Positions 16,748 through 52,392 are shown, counted from the first letter of the stretch. The stretch is 64,000 nucleotides of DNA from Candidatus Enterousia onthequi (GCA_018064365.1 JAGHVJ010000005.1:7982-71981), one strand, 5' to 3'. The notes: generated by a model from the letters alone, not told the origin. Program-made: numbers and translations.

Positions 16748-16975
16748 AAATGGGTAAAAAAGTGTCGCAAAAAACCTAGGTTTTTTGACAAGTGTTTTTT
16801 TTAGTTTTTTTCAATTTTTTTAATTTTCGGTTTTTTAGCAAAATCAAAGGGTTATAAAATCCGGGCTTTGCACGGCAAAGTGTCGCAAAAAAACCTAGGT
16901 TTTTAGTATACTATTTACAAAGGGAAAAAACTAAGGAAATCTAAGGAAAAATTAAAAGTTTGGGAGAGTAAAAAA
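16748..16975 (+). repeat. 228-bp conserved upstream module, copy 1 (about 95% identical to 51139-51366). Contains two copies of GTGTCGCAAAAAACCTAGGTTTTT
   Basis: Base-by-base comparison with 51139-51366 gives about 12 mismatches. Internal 24-mers start at 16762 and 16880. Each carries the 16-bp palindrome AAAAACCTAGGTTTTT. TATACT at 16907-16912. GGA-rich 5' UTR. Confidence 0.9.
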
Positions 16976-17935
16976 TTGTCTAAAAAGCATATGTTTTTGA
17001 ACGTTTTTTCAAAAATCACACTTTTTGCGTGTGTGTTTTGTGCGTTTTTTATTTCGCCCGTGTTCGCCAGTTTGCCAGCCGGTTATACAGAATTAGAATA
17101 TATCGAATCCAGTGGAACACAGTATATCGATACGGGGATTGTTATAAATTCTTCTAATATTTCAAATGTAAAGTTAGAGTTGATAAATGCCTGTGCAGGT
17201 AATAATTCTGGAAGTATCAGTGGTATATCAAACAACAATATAAAACTGTGGCAAGGACTAACGGCTGTTGGCGCAGGTAGTGCTGATGCGGTGATATATT
17301 ACAGTACAGGGAATTCAGAAAACGGCATAAGTAAAAAAACAGCAAGAACCGATTTTTATAAGTATGTTATAGATACAGCAAACGGAATTTGGGGTATGTA
17401 TAATTTGGACAATTCGGTTGTTTATGAGAAGAACGATATTGTATTTTCAACCACAGAAACTGGTAATACAAAATACGGGTTGTTCGGATTTTACAGGGAC
17501 GCGTATTTCAGTACATCATCTTATGCTCAGAAAATATCATCATTTAAGGCAACGGTAGGTGGAACATTAGTAATTGATTTAATCCCTGCCAGGCGCAATT
17601 CAGATAATGTAGTTGGTATGTATGATTTGGTTTCTAATACATTCAAAAACAATTCAGGCTCTGGTTCGTTTATTGCTGGGCCGGTGGCGGAAATCAAAAT
17701 TGCTACAACAAAAATGGTTGATGAAGAATTTGCGGCGGCGGAGGCAAAATTAGCAACAACTGTTCAAACGATTGAAAGTGTTGTATCACGCACGATTGCT
17801 CAGACCGGACAGATTCAGATATTACAAGATACAAAACAAACCCGTCCTGATGAATCGTGTCCTGCAAATATGAAATGTTTACTTGTTCAAGATGAAGACG
17901 GCACACCGCATTGGTACCCCATCATCGAACCATAA
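16976..17935 (+). CDS. Secreted protein of a paralogous family (conserved signal peptide/N-terminus and C-terminal 80 aa, variable centre), copy 1, 319 aa
   Basis: TTG start after a GGGAGAG RBS. Signal peptide ...SPVFA/S. LPAGYTELEYIESSGTQYIDTG motif. C-terminus nearly identical to the 51367-52392 product. Confidence 0.8.
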   Translation: MSKKHMFLNVFSKITLFACVFCAFFISPVFASLPAGYTELEYIESSGTQYIDTGIVINSSNISNVKLELINACAGNNSGSISGISNNNIKLWQGLTAVGAGSADAVIYYSTGNSENGISKKTARTDFYKYVIDTANGIWGMYNLDNSVVYEKNDIVFSTTETGNTKYGLFGFYRDAYFSTSSYAQKISSFKATVGGTLVIDLIPARRNSDNVVGMYDLVSNTFKNNSGSGSFIAGPVAEIKIATTKMVDEEFAAAEAKLATTVQTIESVVSRTIAQTGQIQILQDTKQTRPDESCPANMKCLLVQDEDGTPHWYPIIEP

Positions 17936-18044: not shown

Positions 18045-18524
18045 ATGAGAATTATTGGAATTGATCCGGGGTTATTGCATACTGGTTGGGCGGTGATTGA
18101 TGTCGCAGGCTCGTCACGCACATATATCGCCAGTGGTGTGATTTTGCCGTCGGCTAAATTAGAAATGCCAGAACGGTTAAAATTGATTTTTCGTGGTGTT
18201 ACAGATTTGTGTGAAAAATTCAAACCTGATGTTTGTAGTATAGAAATTATATTTGTGAACCAAAATCCCAAAACTACACTTGCGTTGGGTCAGGCGCGTG
18301 CGGCGGCAATAGTCGCGGTGGGAAATTTAGATATCCCGATTTTTGAATATGAACCAAATATTATTAAAAAGGCTCTGACGGGGGCGGGGCATGCGGACAA
18401 AGAACAGATTTATAAAATGTTGAAAATCTTGCTGCCTGTGGCAAAGCCGAAATCAGCCGATGAATCTGATGCAATTGCGATTGCGATGACGCATGCAAAT
18501 ATGGCACGATTTAATGTGCAATAG
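18045..18524 (+). CDS. ruvC: Crossover junction endodeoxyribonuclease RuvC
   Basis: MRIIGIDPGLLHTGWAVID, EIIFVNQNPKTTLALGQARAAA, DESDAIAIAMTH. 159 aa. Confidence 0.93.
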   Translation: MRIIGIDPGLLHTGWAVIDVAGSSRTYIASGVILPSAKLEMPERLKLIFRGVTDLCEKFKPDVCSIEIIFVNQNPKTTLALGQARAAAIVAVGNLDIPIFEYEPNIIKKALTGAGHADKEQIYKMLKILLPVAKPKSADESDAIAIAMTHANMARFNVQ

Positions 18525-18820: not shown

Positions 18821-21079
18821 TTATCCATTATTGTTTCCTGGAACGTATATATAACCACCAGAATTGCTTCTTTTGTTATTTTGTATTTGTTTGTTCAAAT
18901 CATTAATACCCTTGGCAATCCCATTAAAACATGTTTCTACATTATTTGTACTAATTGATTTACAGTTATCGGTATATTTGCTGTCCAATAAAGTTTTCAA
19001 AACTGTTGAATCTGCGGTCAATTGTTTTTTTACATTGTTTTTCAAATTCTTTTTTGTGACATATGGTTGTAATTTAGAATAATTTGAACGCAAGCATGAT
19101 AATGCTGTTTCTTCATCGATTGGGCTGCATGTGTCAAACTCTACCTTGTCTGTGGATTGGTCATCGTCGGATGATGTGCCGCCGGCAACCTGGACAGATG
19201 CCTTTAATACTTCTTTTTCCAACATGACCTTTAATTGTTTAATCATTTGTTCCAGTGTTGCGTATTGTTTATACATTTGTTGTGCAATCACTGTTGTTTT
19301 CAATGCGATGATTTCGTTCATTTTTTCGCGGTCTTCGGATTTTGTTATTTCGTCATTCTTTGTAAATCCCGCGTTCCATGCGTGCGTATCACACAGTGCA
19401 AATACCGGATCAACATAAGAAATATCTATATCCAAATCATAACATGATGATTTGCATTTTTCGGAATCTGTGCCAGGTACATTTTCACAACATGCACCTT
19501 TATCTTTGGCATCTTGGCCCAATGCCTTGGAAACGGTTGCGGCTTTTAATTTATTAATCGCATTTTCTTTGGTGGTATCAAAACCCAATCCACACATTTG
19601 TGCCGCATCATTTGCACATGAGTTGTTGTTTGTAGTTACTATTATATCTGTGCAGTTGGATTTATGTTTTAATGAGCCCTCGGTTTGATTTAACAAAATT
19701 TCCAACAAATCGATATCGATGCCGGATTTATTTTTACTGCTGCTGCGGCGACGGCGAATAAGGCCGTTGTTGATACTGTCGCTGGCACAACCGATACGCA
19801 CAGAACCCGTGGATGATGCGTCGGGATTTAAGATTTTTTCTTGGATTGCGCCATCGTTTGGGTCCAGGTATTTATTCGGTGTGCATGCAATCAAATCTTC
19901 GGGTGGAATAACATTTCCTTCATAACAATCGTGTCCTCCACGAGTGATACCATTATTTTTGCTGGATTTATGTGTGTCTTTTATGCAATTATCTTCATAT
20001 TTATATGTTGGTAAACCGGATTCACATTTTCTGCTTTCTCCTTCGCCAGTGCATTTTTCAGCATAATTCCCGCGGCAAACGTATTCAGCCCAGCGGTTGC
20101 AAGAGCCACTGAAAAACATATAAATATTACCCAAATCGACACCGACCGATTGTGCGGTGAACAATGCGTCGTCCAGGTTGTCCGCCAATGCGTCGTATGG
20201 TTCCATAAATTTGTTTGCCAATTCGCGGAATTTTGCAACACGTTTTGGGGCACTGCAATTATTTCCATTGACCTCGTTACATTTGGCATAGCGGAACGCG
20301 TCACGCATTGTTGTTTTCAAATTATTCAAACTTTGGTCGACGCCTTCCATACTGGTTAAAATTTGTCCCGTTATTGTTGCACGCGCAATCACATCATCCG
20401 ATACACCCGATTTTGCCGCCGCTTCTTGCGCAGCCGTCAAACCAGTTCCCGGATTAGCCTGGACTGCCTGCGCTTGTACCTGTGCCGACGCCGCAGCCGC
20501 AGCCGCAGAAATTGCATCTTGGTTACTGCGTTGAGATTCCGCCAACTGTTGTTGCAAAGAATCTATTTGTGCGCTGTTTTGTTGTTGCATGGATGCCATT
20601 TGTTGCTGCATCGATTGTAATTGTTGTTGCAACGCCGCATTATTTTGTTCCGCCGCCGCGGTGGCTGCCGCCGCGTTTGCCGCCGCCGCATTTTGTGCCG
20701 CGATTGAATCAGATACCAATTGTGCCGCGATTGCGTTTATTAAATCGTCACCGTGTTTTTTGCATGTTGCATTTGAATTTACACATCCCGCAACAATCGG
20801 TTTTGCAATATCCATATTTGCACAACCGCCACCCGAACATTTGGGCGACGCACATCGCAAAATCAAAGAATTACAATTTCCAAAATCTGCCGTAGCCTTG
20901 GGCGACGCCGCATTATTACGCGGATTTGTTGCGTTGTTCCACTGATTACCAACCACCGACCCCATAGAACCATTATATTGGGTTAAATTACTGCCCGCGG
21001 TTTGCGCAATGGGTGCCGCCGCAACCGCAAATGGCGCGCATAAAAACAAAGTCGAAAAAATTTTAATGAACGTTCTCAA
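18821..21079 (-). CDS. Large secreted Cys-rich protein with an Ala/Gln-rich coiled-coil-like region (752 aa), function unknown
   Basis: Signal peptide MRTFIKIFSTLFLCAPFAVAAAP. About 40 Cys scattered through it. AAQNAAAANAAAATAAAEQNNAALQQQLQSMQQQMASMQQQ low-complexity block. No family recognised. Confidence 0.8.
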   Translation of the reverse strand: MRTFIKIFSTLFLCAPFAVAAAPIAQTAGSNLTQYNGSMGSVVGNQWNNATNPRNNAASPKATADFGNCNSLILRCASPKCSGGGCANMDIAKPIVAGCVNSNATCKKHGDDLINAIAAQLVSDSIAAQNAAAANAAAATAAAEQNNAALQQQLQSMQQQMASMQQQNSAQIDSLQQQLAESQRSNQDAISAAAAAASAQVQAQAVQANPGTGLTAAQEAAAKSGVSDDVIARATITGQILTSMEGVDQSLNNLKTTMRDAFRYAKCNEVNGNNCSAPKRVAKFRELANKFMEPYDALADNLDDALFTAQSVGVDLGNIYMFFSGSCNRWAEYVCRGNYAEKCTGEGESRKCESGLPTYKYEDNCIKDTHKSSKNNGITRGGHDCYEGNVIPPEDLIACTPNKYLDPNDGAIQEKILNPDASSTGSVRIGCASDSINNGLIRRRRSSSKNKSGIDIDLLEILLNQTEGSLKHKSNCTDIIVTTNNNSCANDAAQMCGLGFDTTKENAINKLKAATVSKALGQDAKDKGACCENVPGTDSEKCKSSCYDLDIDISYVDPVFALCDTHAWNAGFTKNDEITKSEDREKMNEIIALKTTVIAQQMYKQYATLEQMIKQLKVMLEKEVLKASVQVAGGTSSDDDQSTDKVEFDTCSPIDEETALSCLRSNYSKLQPYVTKKNLKNNVKKQLTADSTVLKTLLDSKYTDNCKSISTNNVETCFNGIAKGINDLNKQIQNNKRSNSGGYIYVPGNNNG

Positions 21080-26670: not shown

Positions 26671-27696
26671 ATGCCAAATAAAAAACCAAAAATTTCAATC
26701 ATTATTCCAATGTATGGTGTGGAAAAATATTTGCGCCGGTGTTTGGATTCTGTATTAAATCAAACTTTTACTGATTGGCAGGCAATTTGTGTTGATGATG
26801 GAAGCCCGGACAAATCTGGGGAAATTGCAGAAGAATATGCCGGGCGGGATGAACGATTTGTTGTTTTGCATAAAGAAAATGGTGGTTTGTCTGATGCACG
26901 AAATTATGGGATGCCACATGCAACGGGTGAATACGTTATGTATTTGGATAGTGATGATTTTATTCATCCGCAAACAATGGAAATTGCATGGAATTTAGCA
27001 CAACGTAATAATAGTGATATTGTATCGTTTACTTATGATAGATTTTATCGCCCGCAATTGATGGTGTATCATAAATTGGGTTTGGATACAGATAATGTTG
27101 TGCCATTTGGTATTCGTAAAAAGTACAATATTGATAAAATAAAATCTAAAACAGTTATGGATGTTTATGAATATGCAACCGACAGTGCGCATAATGCATT
27201 TAACCAAAATCGCAAATGGTTGATTAAACATTGTCAGGTTTGGAAAAATATGTATCGCCGTGATTTGATTTCAGATATTCCGTTTATCAAGGGTATTTTG
27301 TTCGAAGATTTTCCTTGGTGGTCGCGCGTTATGTTGCGTAATCCGCGTGTTACGATTGCCCCATTGCCTTTGTATTATTATATTCCAAACTTTGGTGGAA
27401 TTGTGTTGTCTGCAAAACAATTACGTATTATGCAGAGTTTAATTGCAGGCATTAAAGATTCGTTTGTTTTGTATCGTGACCAGGCAAATGCGCACCAGAT
27501 GGAAAAGTGGTCGGAAAACTTTTTATGGTTCTTTATAAATTGGGCTTTTCGTAAGATTAAATATTTAAAAACTGATGAAGAATTAGCAATTGCGCATCGT
27601 GAATTTACCGATTTATATGATTTGGGGGTGTTTGAAAAGGTGCCAAAAAATCGCCGTAAATTAGCGTTAAAGATAATGGATTTTATTGGTAAATAA
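26671..27696 (+). CDS. Family 2 glycosyltransferase
   Basis: ISIIIPMYGVEKYLRRCLDSVLNQT, VDDGSPD, LDSDD motifs. Confidence 0.85.
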   Translation: MPNKKPKISIIIPMYGVEKYLRRCLDSVLNQTFTDWQAICVDDGSPDKSGEIAEEYAGRDERFVVLHKENGGLSDARNYGMPHATGEYVMYLDSDDFIHPQTMEIAWNLAQRNNSDIVSFTYDRFYRPQLMVYHKLGLDTDNVVPFGIRKKYNIDKIKSKTVMDVYEYATDSAHNAFNQNRKWLIKHCQVWKNMYRRDLISDIPFIKGILFEDFPWWSRVMLRNPRVTIAPLPLYYYIPNFGGIVLSAKQLRIMQSLIAGIKDSFVLYRDQANAHQMEKWSENFLWFFINWAFRKIKYLKTDEELAIAHREFTDLYDLGVFEKVPKNRRKLALKIMDFIGK

Positions 27697-27698
27697 AA

Positions 27699-28697
27699 AT
27701 GAAGACAGCAAAAGTATCAATTATTATTCCGATATATAATGTGGAAAAATATTTGCGGAGGTGTTTGAATTCGGTTGTGGCTCAGACATTTCAAGATTGG
27801 CAGGCGATTTTAATTGATGATGGCGCGACCGATAAGTCTGGTAAAATTGCTGATGAATATGCTGGGCGGGATGAACGATTTGTTGTTATTCATAAAAAAA
27901 ATGCGGGGGTGTCAGCTGCGCGTAATGATGGGTTGAAATTGGCGTGTGGTAAATATGTTTTGTTTGTGGATTCTGATGATATGATACATCCCCAGTTGTT
28001 GGAAATCACCTGTGGTTTTGCAGAAAAAAATGATGCGGATATCGTGTCGTTCAGATATGATAAGGCTTTGTACAATTCTGTGGCACGTGGTATGGATGTT
28101 GATATATGTTTGAAAATGTTTAATTGTAAAAATTATGATTTAAATAAATTGTGCTATAAAAAAACAGATAATTTGATTCGTTTTGCTACAGAAAAAAATC
28201 ATAGTTTTGGTGCGTTTAAAATAAGACATTGTTATCCTGTTGTGCATTTATATAAACGTAGGTTGTTAAAAAATATTAAGTTTGATACTAATATTAAAAT
28301 TGCAGAAGATTTTCCATTTTGGACATCTGTATTGTTGAAAAATCCGCATGCGATTATTTTGACTGTGCCTTTGTATTTTTATATTCCGAACAATCTGTCG
28401 GCATTAAAGACGGCAAATGCACTGAAAGAATTTAGTAATATTTTAATGGCAACAATGGCAGCTTTTAATTCTGTGATGCGTGCGAATCCGGATAAAAAAT
28501 GGATGAAGATATGGAATCGGGAATTTTTATGGCCATTTATAATAACATCTATGCGTTTGGGGTATGAAGTTGATGATGTTGATTTTGTAAAAAAACAATT
28601 GTCAGAAATGGTAATGATTGGTGCATTGGATAATCCACCGACTTTGCAGGCGCGTAAATACAAACGCAGAATTCAAAGATTTATATCTGGAAATTAA
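27699..28697 (+). CDS. Family 2 glycosyltransferase, tandem paralogue of the preceding gene
   Basis: VSIIIPIYNVEKYLRRCLNSVVAQT, IDDGATD, VDSDD. The N-terminal ~100 aa are clearly similar to the 26671-27696 product. Confidence 0.85.
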   Translation: MKTAKVSIIIPIYNVEKYLRRCLNSVVAQTFQDWQAILIDDGATDKSGKIADEYAGRDERFVVIHKKNAGVSAARNDGLKLACGKYVLFVDSDDMIHPQLLEITCGFAEKNDADIVSFRYDKALYNSVARGMDVDICLKMFNCKNYDLNKLCYKKTDNLIRFATEKNHSFGAFKIRHCYPVVHLYKRRLLKNIKFDTNIKIAEDFPFWTSVLLKNPHAIILTVPLYFYIPNNLSALKTANALKEFSNILMATMAAFNSVMRANPDKKWMKIWNREFLWPFIITSMRLGYEVDDVDFVKKQLSEMVMIGALDNPPTLQARKYKRRIQRFISGN

Positions 28698-36214: not shown

Positions 36215-36715
36215 TTATTTATTAAAATGTTTTTTTAATGTGTTGTATGCGGTTGTTATTTTGGTAAATTCGGTCGCAGCAGATGATTTATCGGCGGCGG
36301 TGTCGGGGTGATATTTTTTTGCAAGTGCGCGATATTTTGTGCCAATTTCACGCCAACTGGCGGTTAACGGTAATCCCAGCGTTTTTAATGCCCCACTGAT
36401 AGATGTTGGTAATTTGCTTTTTGGGGGCGTATAGTCAAATTGACCGCGGCCAGATAAAAAATCGTTCAAGAATTTTATGTAATCTGCTGTGTCTGCATTA
36501 GATTTTGTTTTTTCTTTTAATGGTGCGCCAAATGTTTCGCGTTCCCAGTCCGCTTCGATTTCTTCGGGGGTCATATCGGCATAATAATTCCAGTTTTTAT
36601 TGTATTCAGCCGCGTGTTCTGGACAGAAATGCCAATATTCGCGCAAATCACGATTTTTTGGCGCACGACATGTGCCGGCCTTGGTGCAGCCTGGGTGATC
36701 ACATTTTGTTATCAT
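36215..36715 (-). CDS. J-domain (DnaJ-like) protein with an N-terminal Cys/His cluster
   Basis: C-terminal J domain with HPD (YRALAKKYHPDTAADK). N-terminal CDHPGC...CRAP...HFCPEH. Confidence 0.7.
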   Translation of the reverse strand: MITKCDHPGCTKAGTCRAPKNRDLREYWHFCPEHAAEYNKNWNYYADMTPEEIEADWERETFGAPLKEKTKSNADTADYIKFLNDFLSGRGQFDYTPPKSKLPTSISGALKTLGLPLTASWREIGTKYRALAKKYHPDTAADKSSAATEFTKITTAYNTLKKHFNK

Positions 36716-37581
36716 TATTGTTTGACCTTTGCTTTATTTGATAATGGATGATAATTTTCCACAGTTGTGCGTAATTGTTCAGGCAAAACATGGGTATAAA
36801 TTTGTGTTGTTGAAATGTCTTCGTGACCCAACATTGTTTGTATTGCGCGCAAATTCGCGCCATGTGATAGTAAATGCGATGCAAACGAGTGGCGTAATAC
36901 GTGCGGCGATACGCGGTTTGGTTCGATGCCGGCAAGTATCGCACATTTTTTTAGTATTTTGAAAAATCCATCGCGTGTTATGTGGCCTGTTTGGCCTGTG
37001 CCAGGAAAAATGTATTTAGAATCGGTGTCTCCGCGTATATCCAGCCATTTATGTAATGCCATAATGGCGCCTTGGTGCATCGGAACAATGCGTTCTTTGG
37101 CACCTTTGCCATGGATTAGCAAGTGGTCGCCCAGATTTGCGGTCATGGGTAATTCGCATAATTCAGATACGCGTAATCCTGATGCGTAAACCAGTTCCAG
37201 CATTGCATGCAGACGAACGGAATTTTTTATGTCGCCCGCAGATGATATTAGTAATTCTATTTCATCAACAGATAATAATTTTGGCAATGGTCGTGTGCGT
37301 TTTGGTAATTCTAAATTTTTTGTTGGGTTTGTTTGAATTATTTTTTCCAACATTAAAAATTTATAAAATCCACGTAGACTACTTGCCTTGCGAGCAATAG
37401 AAGATGCACGGTCGGGCAGGTTGGATAAATAATTTTGTATGTCGTCTGGGGTTGCGTTTATTAATCCATTTGGTAATGCATCGTTCGCATGATTCAAATC
37501 TGATGCATAACTTTGGATTGTTTTTTCGCCACGACCACGTTCGGCAGATAGTGCTTCGAGAAAGATATCTATATAATTCAT
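36715..37581 (-). CDS. xerD: Tyrosine site-specific recombinase XerD (XerC not excluded)
   Basis: ASGLRVSEL, HGKGAKERIVP, LRHSFASHLLSHGANLRAIQTMLGHEDISTTQIYTHV. Housekeeping context. TAATG overlap with the downstream J-domain gene. Confidence 0.75.
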   Translation of the reverse strand: MNYIDIFLEALSAERGRGEKTIQSYASDLNHANDALPNGLINATPDDIQNYLSNLPDRASSIARKASSLRGFYKFLMLEKIIQTNPTKNLELPKRTRPLPKLLSVDEIELLISSAGDIKNSVRLHAMLELVYASGLRVSELCELPMTANLGDHLLIHGKGAKERIVPMHQGAIMALHKWLDIRGDTDSKYIFPGTGQTGHITRDGFFKILKKCAILAGIEPNRVSPHVLRHSFASHLLSHGANLRAIQTMLGHEDISTTQIYTHVLPEQLRTTVENYHPLSNKAKVKQ

Positions 37582-50364: not shown

Positions 50365-51093
50365 ATGAAAAAAGTGTTGTTTGGTATTTTTGGGGCGATT
50401 GCAATAACGTGTTCTGGATATGCAGAAGATGTTGAATTGTTGCCGGTGGATACATCTGACCCATTGTATATGTTGGAAGATGAACATTTGTTGTCTGTAT
50501 CAGATATCACATATGGCGATGATTTGTTGCGTTTGGGACAATCGTTTTCTTATGGATTGAATAATCGTTTGATGGCGGGCGCAAATGTGCATTACCAGTT
50601 TGATTTTGTGCGCGCACGCAAAGAACGCGGTTTTTCCAGTATTGAATTGACTGGGGCGTATCGTGCGGGGCTGCCAGATGATAATTCTGCAAATGTGTCA
50701 ACCGACATATTGTTCGGTGCGCGATTCGGTGGTAATCGCCATGTGCGTGAACCAGATTTTGCGAAATCCAGTTATTTCGCAGGATTGCGTGTTGGTCGTC
50801 AATGGGCGGGGTTGACATTGTCTGGGACAGTAAAATCGACATGGGTGTTTGATGATACACGTGGTGTGTCGTATATCGATTTTGTGCCCGAGGCGTATTT
50901 CCGTATGGTTTATGGTTGGCGTGCAGGTATCGGGTTTACGGCACGTGTTGCGACAAATCCTGAATTTGATCGCGAGTGGTGGAAATTCAAATTGGTTAAA
51001 CAATTTGGTCGAACTCAGTATGGTGCAATGTATTCTTATGAATACGAAGAAGAAAATTCTACGGTTGGTTTGTATGTAAATATATTGTTTTAA
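50365..51093 (+). CDS. Putative small outer-membrane beta-barrel protein (242 aa)
   Basis: Signal peptide MKKVLFGIFGAIAITCSGYA. Beta-strand-like alternation. C-terminal ...GLYVNILF. Confidence 0.5.
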   Translation: MKKVLFGIFGAIAITCSGYAEDVELLPVDTSDPLYMLEDEHLLSVSDITYGDDLLRLGQSFSYGLNNRLMAGANVHYQFDFVRARKERGFSSIELTGAYRAGLPDDNSANVSTDILFGARFGGNRHVREPDFAKSSYFAGLRVGRQWAGLTLSGTVKSTWVFDDTRGVSYIDFVPEAYFRMVYGWRAGIGFTARVATNPEFDREWWKFKLVKQFGRTQYGAMYSYEYEEENSTVGLYVNILF

Positions 51094-51117
51094 AAAAGTG
51101 CCAAATGGCACTTTTTT
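51092..51117 (+). terminator. Intrinsic terminator
   Basis: AAAAAAGTGCCA-AA-TGGCACTTTTTT. Confidence 0.8.
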
Positions 51118-51138: not shown

Positions 51139-51366
51139 AAATGGGTAAAAAAGTGTCGCAAAAAACCTAGGTTTTTTGACAAGTGTTTTTTTTAGTTTTT
51201 TTCAATTTTTTTAATTTTCGATTTTTTAGCAAAATCAAAGGGTTATAAAATCCGGGCTTTGTAGGGCAAAGTGTCGCAAAAAAACCTAGGTTTTTGGTAT
51301 ACTATGCACAAAGGGAAAAACCTAAGGAAATCTAAGGAAAAATTAAAATATCGAGAGAGTAAAAAA
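51139..51366 (+). repeat. 228-bp conserved upstream module, copy 2 (see 16748-16975)
   Basis: Same length and ~95% identity to copy 1. CCTAGG palindromes at 51166-51171 and 51285-51290. TATACT retained. Confidence 0.9.
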
Positions 51367-52392
51367 ATGCATAAAAAACACATATTTTTGAGCATTTTTT
51401 CAAAAATCACAATTTTTGCATGTGTTTTTTGTGCATTTTTTGTGTCGCCCGTATTCGCAACTTTGCCAGCCGGTTATACAGAGTTGGAATATATCGAATC
51501 CACCGGAACACAGTATATTAATACGGGAGTAACAGGTTCAACTACATTAGGTTTAAATATAGATTATATGTATACTACAGCAAATTCACCAGCAGGGTTA
51601 ATTGGTATTTACCAACCAACTGTTCCACGTAATGATACTCTTTTCGTTACGACAAACTCTGGTTCGGTTGATGCTTCTGGTCTGATGTTGATTTCTAAAG
51701 GTAAAGATATTTCAAACAAAAATCGTAAAACTCCTCCTATAAACGAAAAGTTTAATGCGAAGATTAACTGGTTAGGTGATGGAGAAATCAACTGGAATAA
51801 TGGCGAATCAACTAATACAGATGGCTCAAATGATGCAGTAGCGCATAGTATAATTTTGTTTGGTAGAGAATACAATAGTGCATATAAATATACTAATGCA
51901 AGAGTGTACTTATGTCAAATATCTGATGGAGCACGTATTGTTATGAACTTCATCCCTGCTAAACGCACTGCCGATAATGTTTTGGGTATGTATGATACTG
52001 TGTCGGGGACATTTTTTACGAATTCTGGGACAGGCGATTTTGTTGCGGGGCCGGTTGCTAATTGTAAAACTTTTGGAACAGACGGTGTTATGTGTGCCGC
52101 ATGTAAATCTGGTTATAGACTTGATAGTAATGGCGGCTGCGTGGGTGTGATAGAGATTGCAACGACAAAAATGGTGGATGATGAATTTGCGGCGGCGGAG
52201 GCCAAATTGGCAACCACAGTTCAAACAATTGAAAGTGTTGTATCACGCACAATAACCCAAACTGGGCAGATTCAGGTATTACAAGATACAAAACAAACAC
52301 GCCCCGATGAAAGTTGCCCTGCGAATATGAAATGCCTACTGGTCCAAGATGAAGACGGGACACCACATTGGTACCCGATTATCGAGCCGTAA
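51367..52392 (+). CDS. Secreted protein of the paralogous family, copy 2 (341 aa from ATG 51367)
   Basis: N-terminal 54 aa ~80% identical and C-terminal 80 aa 76/80 identical to the 16976 product. Divergent centre plus an extra Cys-rich insert NCKTFGTDGVMCAACKSGYRLDSNGGC. The ORF-track start at 51271 lies in the conserved non-coding module and was trimmed. Confidence 0.8.
   Translation: MHKKHIFLSIFSKITIFACVFCAFFVSPVFATLPAGYTELEYIESTGTQYINTGVTGSTTLGLNIDYMYTTANSPAGLIGIYQPTVPRNDTLFVTTNSGSVDASGLMLISKGKDISNKNRKTPPINEKFNAKINWLGDGEINWNNGESTNTDGSNDAVAHSIILFGREYNSAYKYTNARVYLCQISDGARIVMNFIPAKRTADNVLGMYDTVSGTFFTNSGTGDFVAGPVANCKTFGTDGVMCAACKSGYRLDSNGGCVGVIEIATTKMVDDEFAAAEAKLATTVQTIESVVSRTITQTGQIQVLQDTKQTRPDESCPANMKCLLVQDEDGTPHWYPIIEP

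Follow-up and report, generated by a model that had tools for sequence, protein, structure and literature searches.

Two related genes, open reading frames ORF1 (16976-17935) and ORF2 (51367-52392), were examined together with the DNA upstream of them in a stretch of 64,000 nucleotides from the metagenome-assembled genome (MAG) Candidatus Enterousia onthequi (GCA_018064365.1 JAGHVJ010000005.1:7982-71981). The whole of this stretch is referred to below as the window. Both genes probably belong to a large family of Sec-exported, lectin-like proteins in which each gene has its own invertible promoter switch and coding sequences are exchanged between strains. A 119-bp segment upstream of ORF2 is inverted in the assembly of a closely related genome, and at the orthologues of both loci in that genome the whole coding sequence has been replaced between nearly identical flanks. 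The product of ORF2 is MBP9999233.1 (KBT14_00880), and the organism, whose source is horse-faeces metagenomes (Gilroy et al., PMC8957277), is placed in Alphaproteobacteria incertae sedis. Candidatus Enterousia, of the GTDB order Rs-D84, comprises uncultured gut Alphaproteobacteria with genomes of less than 1 Mb from which respiration and most biosynthesis are absent; a partner-dependent lifestyle has been proposed for them, with no known mode of partner interaction (PMC12306168).

A putative invertible promoter cassette

The 228 nt immediately 5' of the start codons of ORF1 and ORF2 are 95% identical. This conserved cassette begins approximately 20 nt past the hairpin that ends the upstream gene and contains a 119-bp segment with a palindromic site at each end (Table 1). 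The palindromic cores, C-A6-CCTAGG-T6-G and C-A7-CCTAGG-T5-G, occur four times in the window against an expectation of 0. Short inverted arms around a 6-bp centre are the usual geometry of a tyrosine recombinase site. The segment at ORF2 carries TTGACA/TGTCAA at its left end as well as phased T/A tracts. A search of Rfam with the cassette returned only sub-threshold noise and no family.

The contig JAKSTA010000001.1 of a sister MAG, GCA_024402795.1 (locus tag MJ164), runs collinear with the window at 97-98% identity. At the MJ164 orthologue of ORF2 (L005, 9857-9992) the segment is the reverse complement of that at ORF2, at ORF1 and at the MJ164 locus L004. The run lengths at the L005 junctions are A6..T7 and A6..T5, exactly as predicted from A6..T6 and A7..T5 by a reciprocal crossover inside CCTAGG. 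The arrangement of both window copies is called orientation A and that of L005 orientation B. Orientations were compared between two consensus MAG assemblies, in a survey that rests on MJ164 loci of the sister MAG rather than on paralogues of the window's own genome (locus tag KBT14) outside the window. Ten cassettes were surveyed, giving eight in orientation A, one in orientation B and one solo site.

On the gene strand a promoter scan identified TTGTCA-N18-TATACT together with an upstream TG in L005 alone, and no promoter upstream of ORF2 in the window. When the segments were flipped in silico, all eight A-state cassettes gained TTGTCA-18-TATACT and L005 lost it. The promoter of orientation B is a 10/12 extended -10 promoter with phased A-tracts upstream of the -35, which by inspection are UP-element-like, and in orientation A no sigma-70-like promoter was present at any of the eight loci. 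An earlier note on this DNA had described a conserved promoter cassette; the conservation holds, but the promoter is not complete, as neither window copy has a -35 in its present orientation.

These features suggest how the switch could operate. A recombinase, probably of the tyrosine/Xer type, would cross over inside CCTAGG and invert the 119-bp segment. In orientation B the TTGTCA and A-tracts of the segment would be placed 18 nt upstream of the fixed TGgTATACT, giving a sigma-70-type promoter and the ON state, and in orientation A, as in both window copies, the gene would be without a -35 and OFF. The assignment of ON and OFF to the two orientations is a prediction from promoter consensus.

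Eleven of the 13 copies examined have their own cassette. Two distant loci from two other genera, whose proteins are 32-34% identical to ORF2, have the same layout: a terminator, a GTGTCGC-A6-CCTAGG site, a segment of ~94 nt, a second site, TATATT/TATAAT, a Shine-Dalgarno (SD) sequence and ATG. The CCTAGG core is shown in several more loci by read-through peptides of the form '..KNLGFLY..'.

Other arrangements were also observed. A solo site, GTGTCGC-A6-CCTAGG-T5-GGTATACT, lies upstream of P0079 at L007 9914-9930, where exactly the 119-bp segment is absent and the downstream leader and gene are intact; this could reflect deletion through the symmetric core, leaving the gene locked OFF, or a collapse of the assembly. 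The tandem family genes P0095 and P0006 (L022 2634-4978) have no cassette and a different signal peptide, and end in a C-terminal variant, CPAGKKC..HWYEIIE, that is carried by most of the more distant homologues. Upstream of P0029 (L030 6480-6800, Logan SRR9866653) there is no CCTAGG cassette and instead a leader of ~300 nt that ends in a terminator-like hairpin, CCGTCTGAATTTTCGACGGTTTTTT, with no Rfam match; this gene may be under a different, RNA-based control. When metagenome contigs were scanned with the core pattern, no Enterousia loci were found, only a repeat in other organisms. This dispersed repeat, ..ATGGTCGC-A6-CCTAGG-T5-GGAC.., occurs in L010-L021 (JGI Ga0056128, Ga0209454, Ga0209367, Ga0209671) and has a core identical to that of the Enterousia sites; the contigs are unrelated and carry no family gene close by.

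Replacement of coding sequences between strains

The family proteins have a signal peptide, a variable head that begins with a conserved N-terminal portion (N-module), and a constant C-terminal module (C-module). Both family loci of the window lie at matching places in MJ164, between tsaE and ruvC and between an outer-membrane-protein-like gene and rarA. In a sliding comparison with MJ164, the sequence before the cassette was 97-100% identical; the value fell to 82-90% across the signal-peptide/N-module region and to ~40% (random) within the centre, rose to 80-95% over the C-module and regained 95-100% right past the stop codon. At both orthologous loci one breakpoint is at the cassette/5' end and the other at the stop codon. 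For the C-module at the two 'orthologous' loci the synonymous divergence (dS) is 0.5-0.75, whereas tsaE, rarA and ruvC have values of 0.04-0.18. The identity of the flanks set against the divergence of the coding region shows that at each of the two loci the replacement took in the entire coding sequence. In a comparison of 40 heads no near-identical pair spanned the two genomes, the best centre identity being 66% and most ~40%.

The earlier note had proposed cassette exchange by recombination in the conserved flanks and a comparison of strains for breakpoints, and the replacement seen at both loci of a genome 97-98% identical to the window is what this proposal predicts. Whole coding sequences would be swapped between strains by homologous recombination, with the cassette/signal-peptide region and the 3' end serving as the two arms. 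As a result of such exchange, each strain would have its own repertoire.

Two other routes to variation were considered and rejected. Gene conversion from silent cassettes, as in Anaplasma msp2 or Borrelia vls, does not fit a window without partial copies and a set of examined copies that are all full-length. A diversity-generating retroelement is opposed by the lack of any repeat of either centre in the window (self-blastn) and by centres that differ throughout rather than at scattered sites.

Two further observations were made next to ORF1. An adjoining gene for a 752-residue Cys-rich secreted protein (18821-21079, minus strand), with the region 18045-18524, shares only 77-87% identity with its MJ164 orthologue, where the flanks reach 97%; it may be another surface gene under fast evolution, or a tract of recombination that extends out of ORF1. 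The neighbouring ruvC has a dS of 0.18, compared with 0.04-0.06 for tsaE and rarA.

The selection acting on each module was estimated from the ratio of non-synonymous (dN) to synonymous divergence, a calculation that the earlier note had put forward. Between ORF1 and ORF2 the C-module gave a dS of 1.18, a dN of 0.036 and a ratio (omega) of 0.03, and the N-module a dS of 0.50 and an omega of 0.19. Over all C-module comparisons dN/dS was 0.03-0.07 at a dS of 0.5-1.2. An omega of 0.03 at a dS of 1.18 shows that the C-module is kept by strong purifying selection on the protein, and dS values of 0.5-1.2 led to the rejection of recent gene conversion as the cause of its conservation. The synonymous sites of the coding modules adjoining the cassette differ by 36-59%. 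The 95% identity of the cassette is far above this, which indicates that the cassette DNA is itself constrained or homogenised.

Protein modules and predicted fold

The products of ORF1 and ORF2 are 50% identical overall by BLASTP (E 1e-103). The DNA of 51139-51527 matches 16748-17136 at 91% and that of 52156-52392 matches 17699-17935 at 85%. Identity is 81% over the first 54 residues and 95% (76/80) over the last 80, in agreement with the ~80% and 76/80 reported in the earlier note. ORF2 begins with the ATG at 51367; a longer frame of 373 residues from a GTG at 51271 is a read-through of the conserved 5' leader. Cleavage as a lipoprotein was rejected for these proteins, by inspection, because a Lys precedes the Cys within the h-region window and there is a good signal peptidase I site, VFA|T.

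AlphaFold models of ORF2 and ORF1 gave a predicted local distance difference test score (pLDDT) of 73 and 75, and show the same layout: a signal helix, a beta-sandwich from residue 37 to ~224-236, a helix of ~37 residues with hydrophobic spacing of 3-4, and a terminal beta-hairpin. The C-module comprises the heptad-patterned helix, a CPANMKC loop and the hairpin (LLVQDEDGTPHWYPII). The ORF2 model places three short strands, containing four Cys, between head and helix. This 4-Cys mini-domain, noticed earlier as an insert particular to ORF2, is indeed missing from ORF1 but is present in P0003, and the 8-10 Cys of P0004 and P0006-8 suggest that these proteins carry it too.

The centres of the two heads were described in the earlier note as unrelated, and a BLASTP search restricted to them found nothing colinear, the best match being 13 residues out of register at E 0.068. 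At the level of the predicted fold the description does not stand. The modelled sandwich takes in the variable centre together with two sets of conserved strands, those of the N-terminus and those of IPAxR..GMYD..AGP. In ORF2 the conserved sequences (LPAGYTELEYIESTGTQYI.. and IPAKR..GMYD..F.AGPV) form edge strands around a hypervariable core. As a single beta-sandwich holds both the conserved strands and the centre, the models indicate that the centre is the hypervariable core of one ConA/LamG-like domain, diverged past pairwise recognition, and not a swapped foreign module or unrelated insert.

The models were compared with known and predicted structures using Foldseek, as the earlier note had advised. 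Against the PDB the LG domains of agrin, laminin and neurexin, the pentraxins and CBM40 ranked first, although these matches are weak (E ~1e-3, template modelling score ~0.5). Against the predicted viral structures of BFVD both models shared the same top match, an uncharacterised gut Siphoviridae protein (6e-17 for ORF2, 1.5e-13 for ORF1), and the BFVD matches, at E 6e-17 to 1e-10, also include several phage proteins annotated as ConA-like lectin/glucanase. These results agree with the guess in the earlier note of a lectin or jelly-roll protein. The heads therefore resemble ConA-like lectin and LamG domains, including the phage ConA-like receptor-binding proteins, in predicted fold; they differ from them in sequence, in that ORF1 and ORF2 matched no curated ConA/LamG model of Pfam or NCBIfam (e.g. 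Laminin_G_3) and no solved relative was found in the PDB with the C-module and the family profile as queries. No family of Pfam, NCBIfam or PHROGs covers either protein, with no Pfam or NCBIfam match at E<=1 beyond noise and only insignificant PHROG matches.

Table 1. Positions of the features of ORF1, ORF2 and their cassettes, and of the recombinase gene, in the window.
Feature	Position	Strand	Description and basis
Hairpin upstream of ORF2 cassette	51092-51117	+	AAAAAAGTGCC-AAAT-GGCACTTTTTT, ends the upstream 248-residue gene; read from the sequence; also at the orthologous locus L005
Left recombination site of ORF2 switch	51150-51185	.	AAAGTGTCGC-A6-CCTAGG-T6-GACAAGTG; palindromic core 51159-51178, CCTAGG 51166-51171; kept in 9 loci
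Putative invertible segment, 119 bp	51169-51287	.	CCTAGG centre to centre; orientation A, predicted OFF
Right recombination site	51268-51296	.	AAAGTGTCGC-A7-CCTAGG-T5; CCTAGG 51285-51290
Fixed -10-like TATACT	51298-51303	+	Preceded by TGg (extended -10), just outside the segment; paired with TTGTCA by the promoter scan on L005
Conserved 5' leader	51304-51366	+	SD-like GAGAGAG at 51353-51359; 9-locus cassette alignment
ORF2 signal peptide, residues 1-31	51367-51459	+	MHKKHIFLSIFSKITIFACVFCAFFVSPVFA|TLPAGY; n-h-c pattern by inspection; helix 6-25 in model
ORF2 head, residues 32-231	51460-52059	+	One predicted ConA/LamG-like beta-sandwich; AF2 (AlphaFold2) model m2cf1d2ffb910, Foldseek
ORF2 optional 4-Cys mini-domain, residues 232-258	52060-52140	+	NCKTFGTDGVMCAACKSGYRLDSNGGC; three short strands in model
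ORF2 constant C-module, residues 262-341	52150-52392	+	AF2 model, alignment
ORF1 switch	16759-16912	.	Orientation A; left core 16769-16786, right core 16887-16904, agTATACT 16907-16912
ORF1	16976-17935	+	TTG start; signal peptide; predicted ConA/LamG-like head from residue 32 to ~238; without Cys insert; AF2 model mcee51e7be01f
ORF1 constant C-module	17693-17932	+	
Xer-type tyrosine recombinase	36715-37581	-	Pfam Phage_integrase 1.9e-42 and SAM_1; NCBIfam NF001399, 297 bits

Size and architecture of the family

A database search found 1294 relatives, none with a name. Among the proteins listed there were at least 18 paralogues with KBT14 tags, making at least 19 with ORF1, and at least 27 with MJ164 tags in the sister MAG. 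Locus tags that reach ~4455 in steps of 5 would place the family at ~2-3% of genes. At least three distant loci with the C-module, L001-L003, were among the matches listed in a scan of genome contigs. Within the window, tblastn and self-blastn revealed no further copies or silent partial cassettes besides ORF1 and ORF2. The inventory of paralogues and silent cassettes that the earlier note had called for thus gave many dispersed genes, full-length in every copy examined, and a window without partial copies, and its suggestion of a diversifying secreted or surface family is well matched by these numbers.

A number of the KBT14 and MJ164 proteins are partial (e.g. P0010, P0013, P0014, P0018, P0019, P0070, P0082 and P0116), their contigs ending inside the cassette or the family gene. 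So many contig ends of both MAGs fall in family genes or cassettes that the family itself appears to fragment the assemblies, and the copy numbers are lower bounds.

The paralogues have the signal peptide and the last ~80 residues in common and differ in their heads. Class A heads, which include those of ORF1 and ORF2, start with LPAGYTELEYIESTGTQYIDTG and end with IPAKR..GMYD..F.AGP. Variants of this class have a nested insertion (P0018, P0019 and P0021), a further domain (P0009 and P0012) or two heads (P0002). Class B heads (e.g. P0070, P0081 and P0086) are unrelated to class A, and P0070 matches the PHROG tail-fibre family phrog_6782 at 2e-6. The usual architecture in other genera is a head, the C-module and a second head.

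The proteins of the family can accordingly be pictured as a variable N-terminal head that would bind a ligand, an optional Cys knot, and a constant coiled-coil-type helix with a beta-hairpin. The head would be a ConA/LamG-like jelly roll in ORF1 and ORF2 and phage-tail-fibre-like in other paralogues. The constant C-module may oligomerise the protein and dock it to a common envelope partner, and the proteins may lie at the cell surface.

Recombinase and neighbouring genes

The gene at 36715-37581 is the only recombinase seen in the window. Its product matches the XerD equivalog model below the cut-off of that model; its claim to be the invertase is weak, and it could instead be the housekeeping XerC/D. 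The Pfam lists of the MJ164 loci L004, L005, L007, L008, L022, L024 and L026, the part of that genome that was searched, contain no other recombinase.

Elsewhere in the window, 5-2540 encodes an ATPase (PF00437) and a platform protein (PF00482) of the type II secretion system/type IV pilus type, which could form an export or pilus system; the genome is described as lacking flagella. Two tandem glycosyltransferase paralogues (26671-27696 and 27699-28697) share a 224-nt stretch that is 78% identical.

Discussion

Several observations weigh against an invertible switch at each family gene. Orientation B is known from one locus only and from two consensus MAG assemblies, and an assembler could be misled by short palindromes common to ~30 loci; likewise, the solo site may be an assembly collapse across a 27-nt direct repeat. 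No dedicated invertase was found in the window or the MJ164 loci listed above, and the sole recombinase of the window resembles a housekeeping Xer protein. The palindromic CCTAGG overlap would leave a tyrosine recombinase without directionality, an uncommon property in a switch dedicated to inversion. The ON and OFF states were assigned by consensus matching, and in the two distant genera (L028 and L029) the assembled orientation scores at least as well as the flipped one (TCGCCA-18-TATAAT assembled, TTGCAT-18-TATAAT flipped). The predicted fold has moderate model confidence (pLDDT 73-75) and weak matches in the PDB.

Part of this evidence could instead be read as a static shared promoter or 5' leader that is kept by selection or gene conversion, with the inversion and the solo site as assembly artefacts of the palindromes and any regulation achieved otherwise. 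That only one of ten loci is inverted, that the assemblies are evidently stressed at family genes, and that neither the window nor the fetched MJ164 loci contain a dedicated invertase would all fit this explanation. We nevertheless consider it unlikely, because the inverted segment has locus-specific substitutions and lies between correctly ordered unique flanks, and because the A/T runs at both junctions fit a reciprocal crossover exactly. A static leader would also leave the absence of a sigma-70-like promoter in orientation A at eight loci, against a 10/12 extended -10 promoter in orientation B, without explanation, along with the paired-palindrome layout kept in the two loci whose proteins are 32-34% identical to ORF2.

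The genes might also be regarded as tail-fibre remnants of a prophage or tailocin, their common ends reflecting the shuffling of phage modules. The heads do resemble gut-phage ConA-like proteins, one class B paralogue matches a tail-fibre PHROG, and the C-terminal hairpin that follows a coiled coil recalls the design of a fibre. Against such an origin the copies examined stand singly or in tandem between housekeeping genes (tsaE/ruvC, OMP-like/rarA, secG, rho, adk and others) with no phage genes nearby, all copies have Sec signal peptides, the PHROG matches of the window proteins are insignificant, and the ORF2 head, searched for by tblastn in 50,697 phage genomes, had no match; we judge this explanation very improbable. 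No more credit is given to the idea that the paired palindromes are the ends of an element resembling a miniature inverted-repeat transposable element (MITE), inserted before an ancestral family gene and copied along with it without a regulatory role. A related core, GGTCGC-A6-CCTAGG-T5-GGAC, is indeed dispersed in unrelated JGI contigs that lack a family gene. In Enterousia, by contrast, every site found lay immediately 5' of a family gene, with constant spacing to the -10 and start codon, and in one orientation the segment supplies a -35 at exactly 18 nt.

An invertible promoter at each gene is thus the reading we favour, and it would be of a known kind. The fimS element of Escherichia coli is a short invertible element with inverted repeats on which the tyrosine recombinases FimB and FimE act to turn an adhesin ON or OFF; it is a single 314-bp locus with a complete promoter inside and adjacent recombinase genes, and not a multigene repertoire. 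Closer parallels appear to exist in Mycoplasma penetrans and Bacteroides. The mpl (P35) family of M. penetrans is described as 38 lipoprotein genes at scattered loci with per-gene invertible promoters, for which Xer-like tyrosine recombinases are the proposed invertases (Horino et al. 2003, summarised in PMC2268961). On this description the two systems seem alike in a reduced genome, a host-associated life and a scattered multigene family in which each gene has its own small invertible element, so that genes can switch independently. They would differ in that the proteins are not homologous, the mpl products being lipoproteins of a wall-less bacterium and those of Enterousia Sec-signal-peptide proteins of a diderm, and in that Enterousia has a split promoter, whose -35 belongs to the segment and whose -10 does not, and a perfectly palindromic recombination core. 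In Bacteroides fragilis the invertible promoters of capsule and surface loci are worked by global invertases, Mpi and the Tsr tyrosine recombinases (PMC11602134, PMC2268961). As far as these sources describe it, this gut commensal resembles Enterousia in having many dispersed loci with one inverted-repeat consensus, an arrangement that points to one trans-acting recombinase switching the surface architecture; Bacteroides switches mostly polysaccharide operons, has other repeat sequences and carries the whole promoter inside the segment. In the literature searched, the only paper to bring together invertons, Alphaproteobacteria and the gut was a general inverton survey, and phase variation is unmentioned in the Enterousia paper (PMC12306168).

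Beyond what the earlier note had described, the analysis adds what looks like a split-promoter inverton at each gene, and the replacement of whole heads at the strain level. The split promoter with a fully palindromic core would extend the known designs of invertons. The defined junction sequences can be used for read-level counts of ON and OFF states in existing metagenomes, the compact recombination site is testable with the few recombinases of these genomes, and the family proteins are candidate adhesins for attempts at enrichment or co-culture. More speculatively, and with some doubt on our part, the genome-reduced and probably partner-dependent Rs-D84/Enterousia lineage could use phase-variable secreted fibres whose phage-receptor-binding-like or lectin-like heads choose or change the cell or glycan to which the bacteria attach, with split-promoter invertons worked by an Xer-type recombinase and heads swapped between strains; this would be an independent mycoplasma-style system built from phage-like modules. 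The per-gene switch and the strain-specific repertoires point to strong diversifying pressure on the cell surface of these bacteria, the source of which could be host immunity, phage or the choice of partner.

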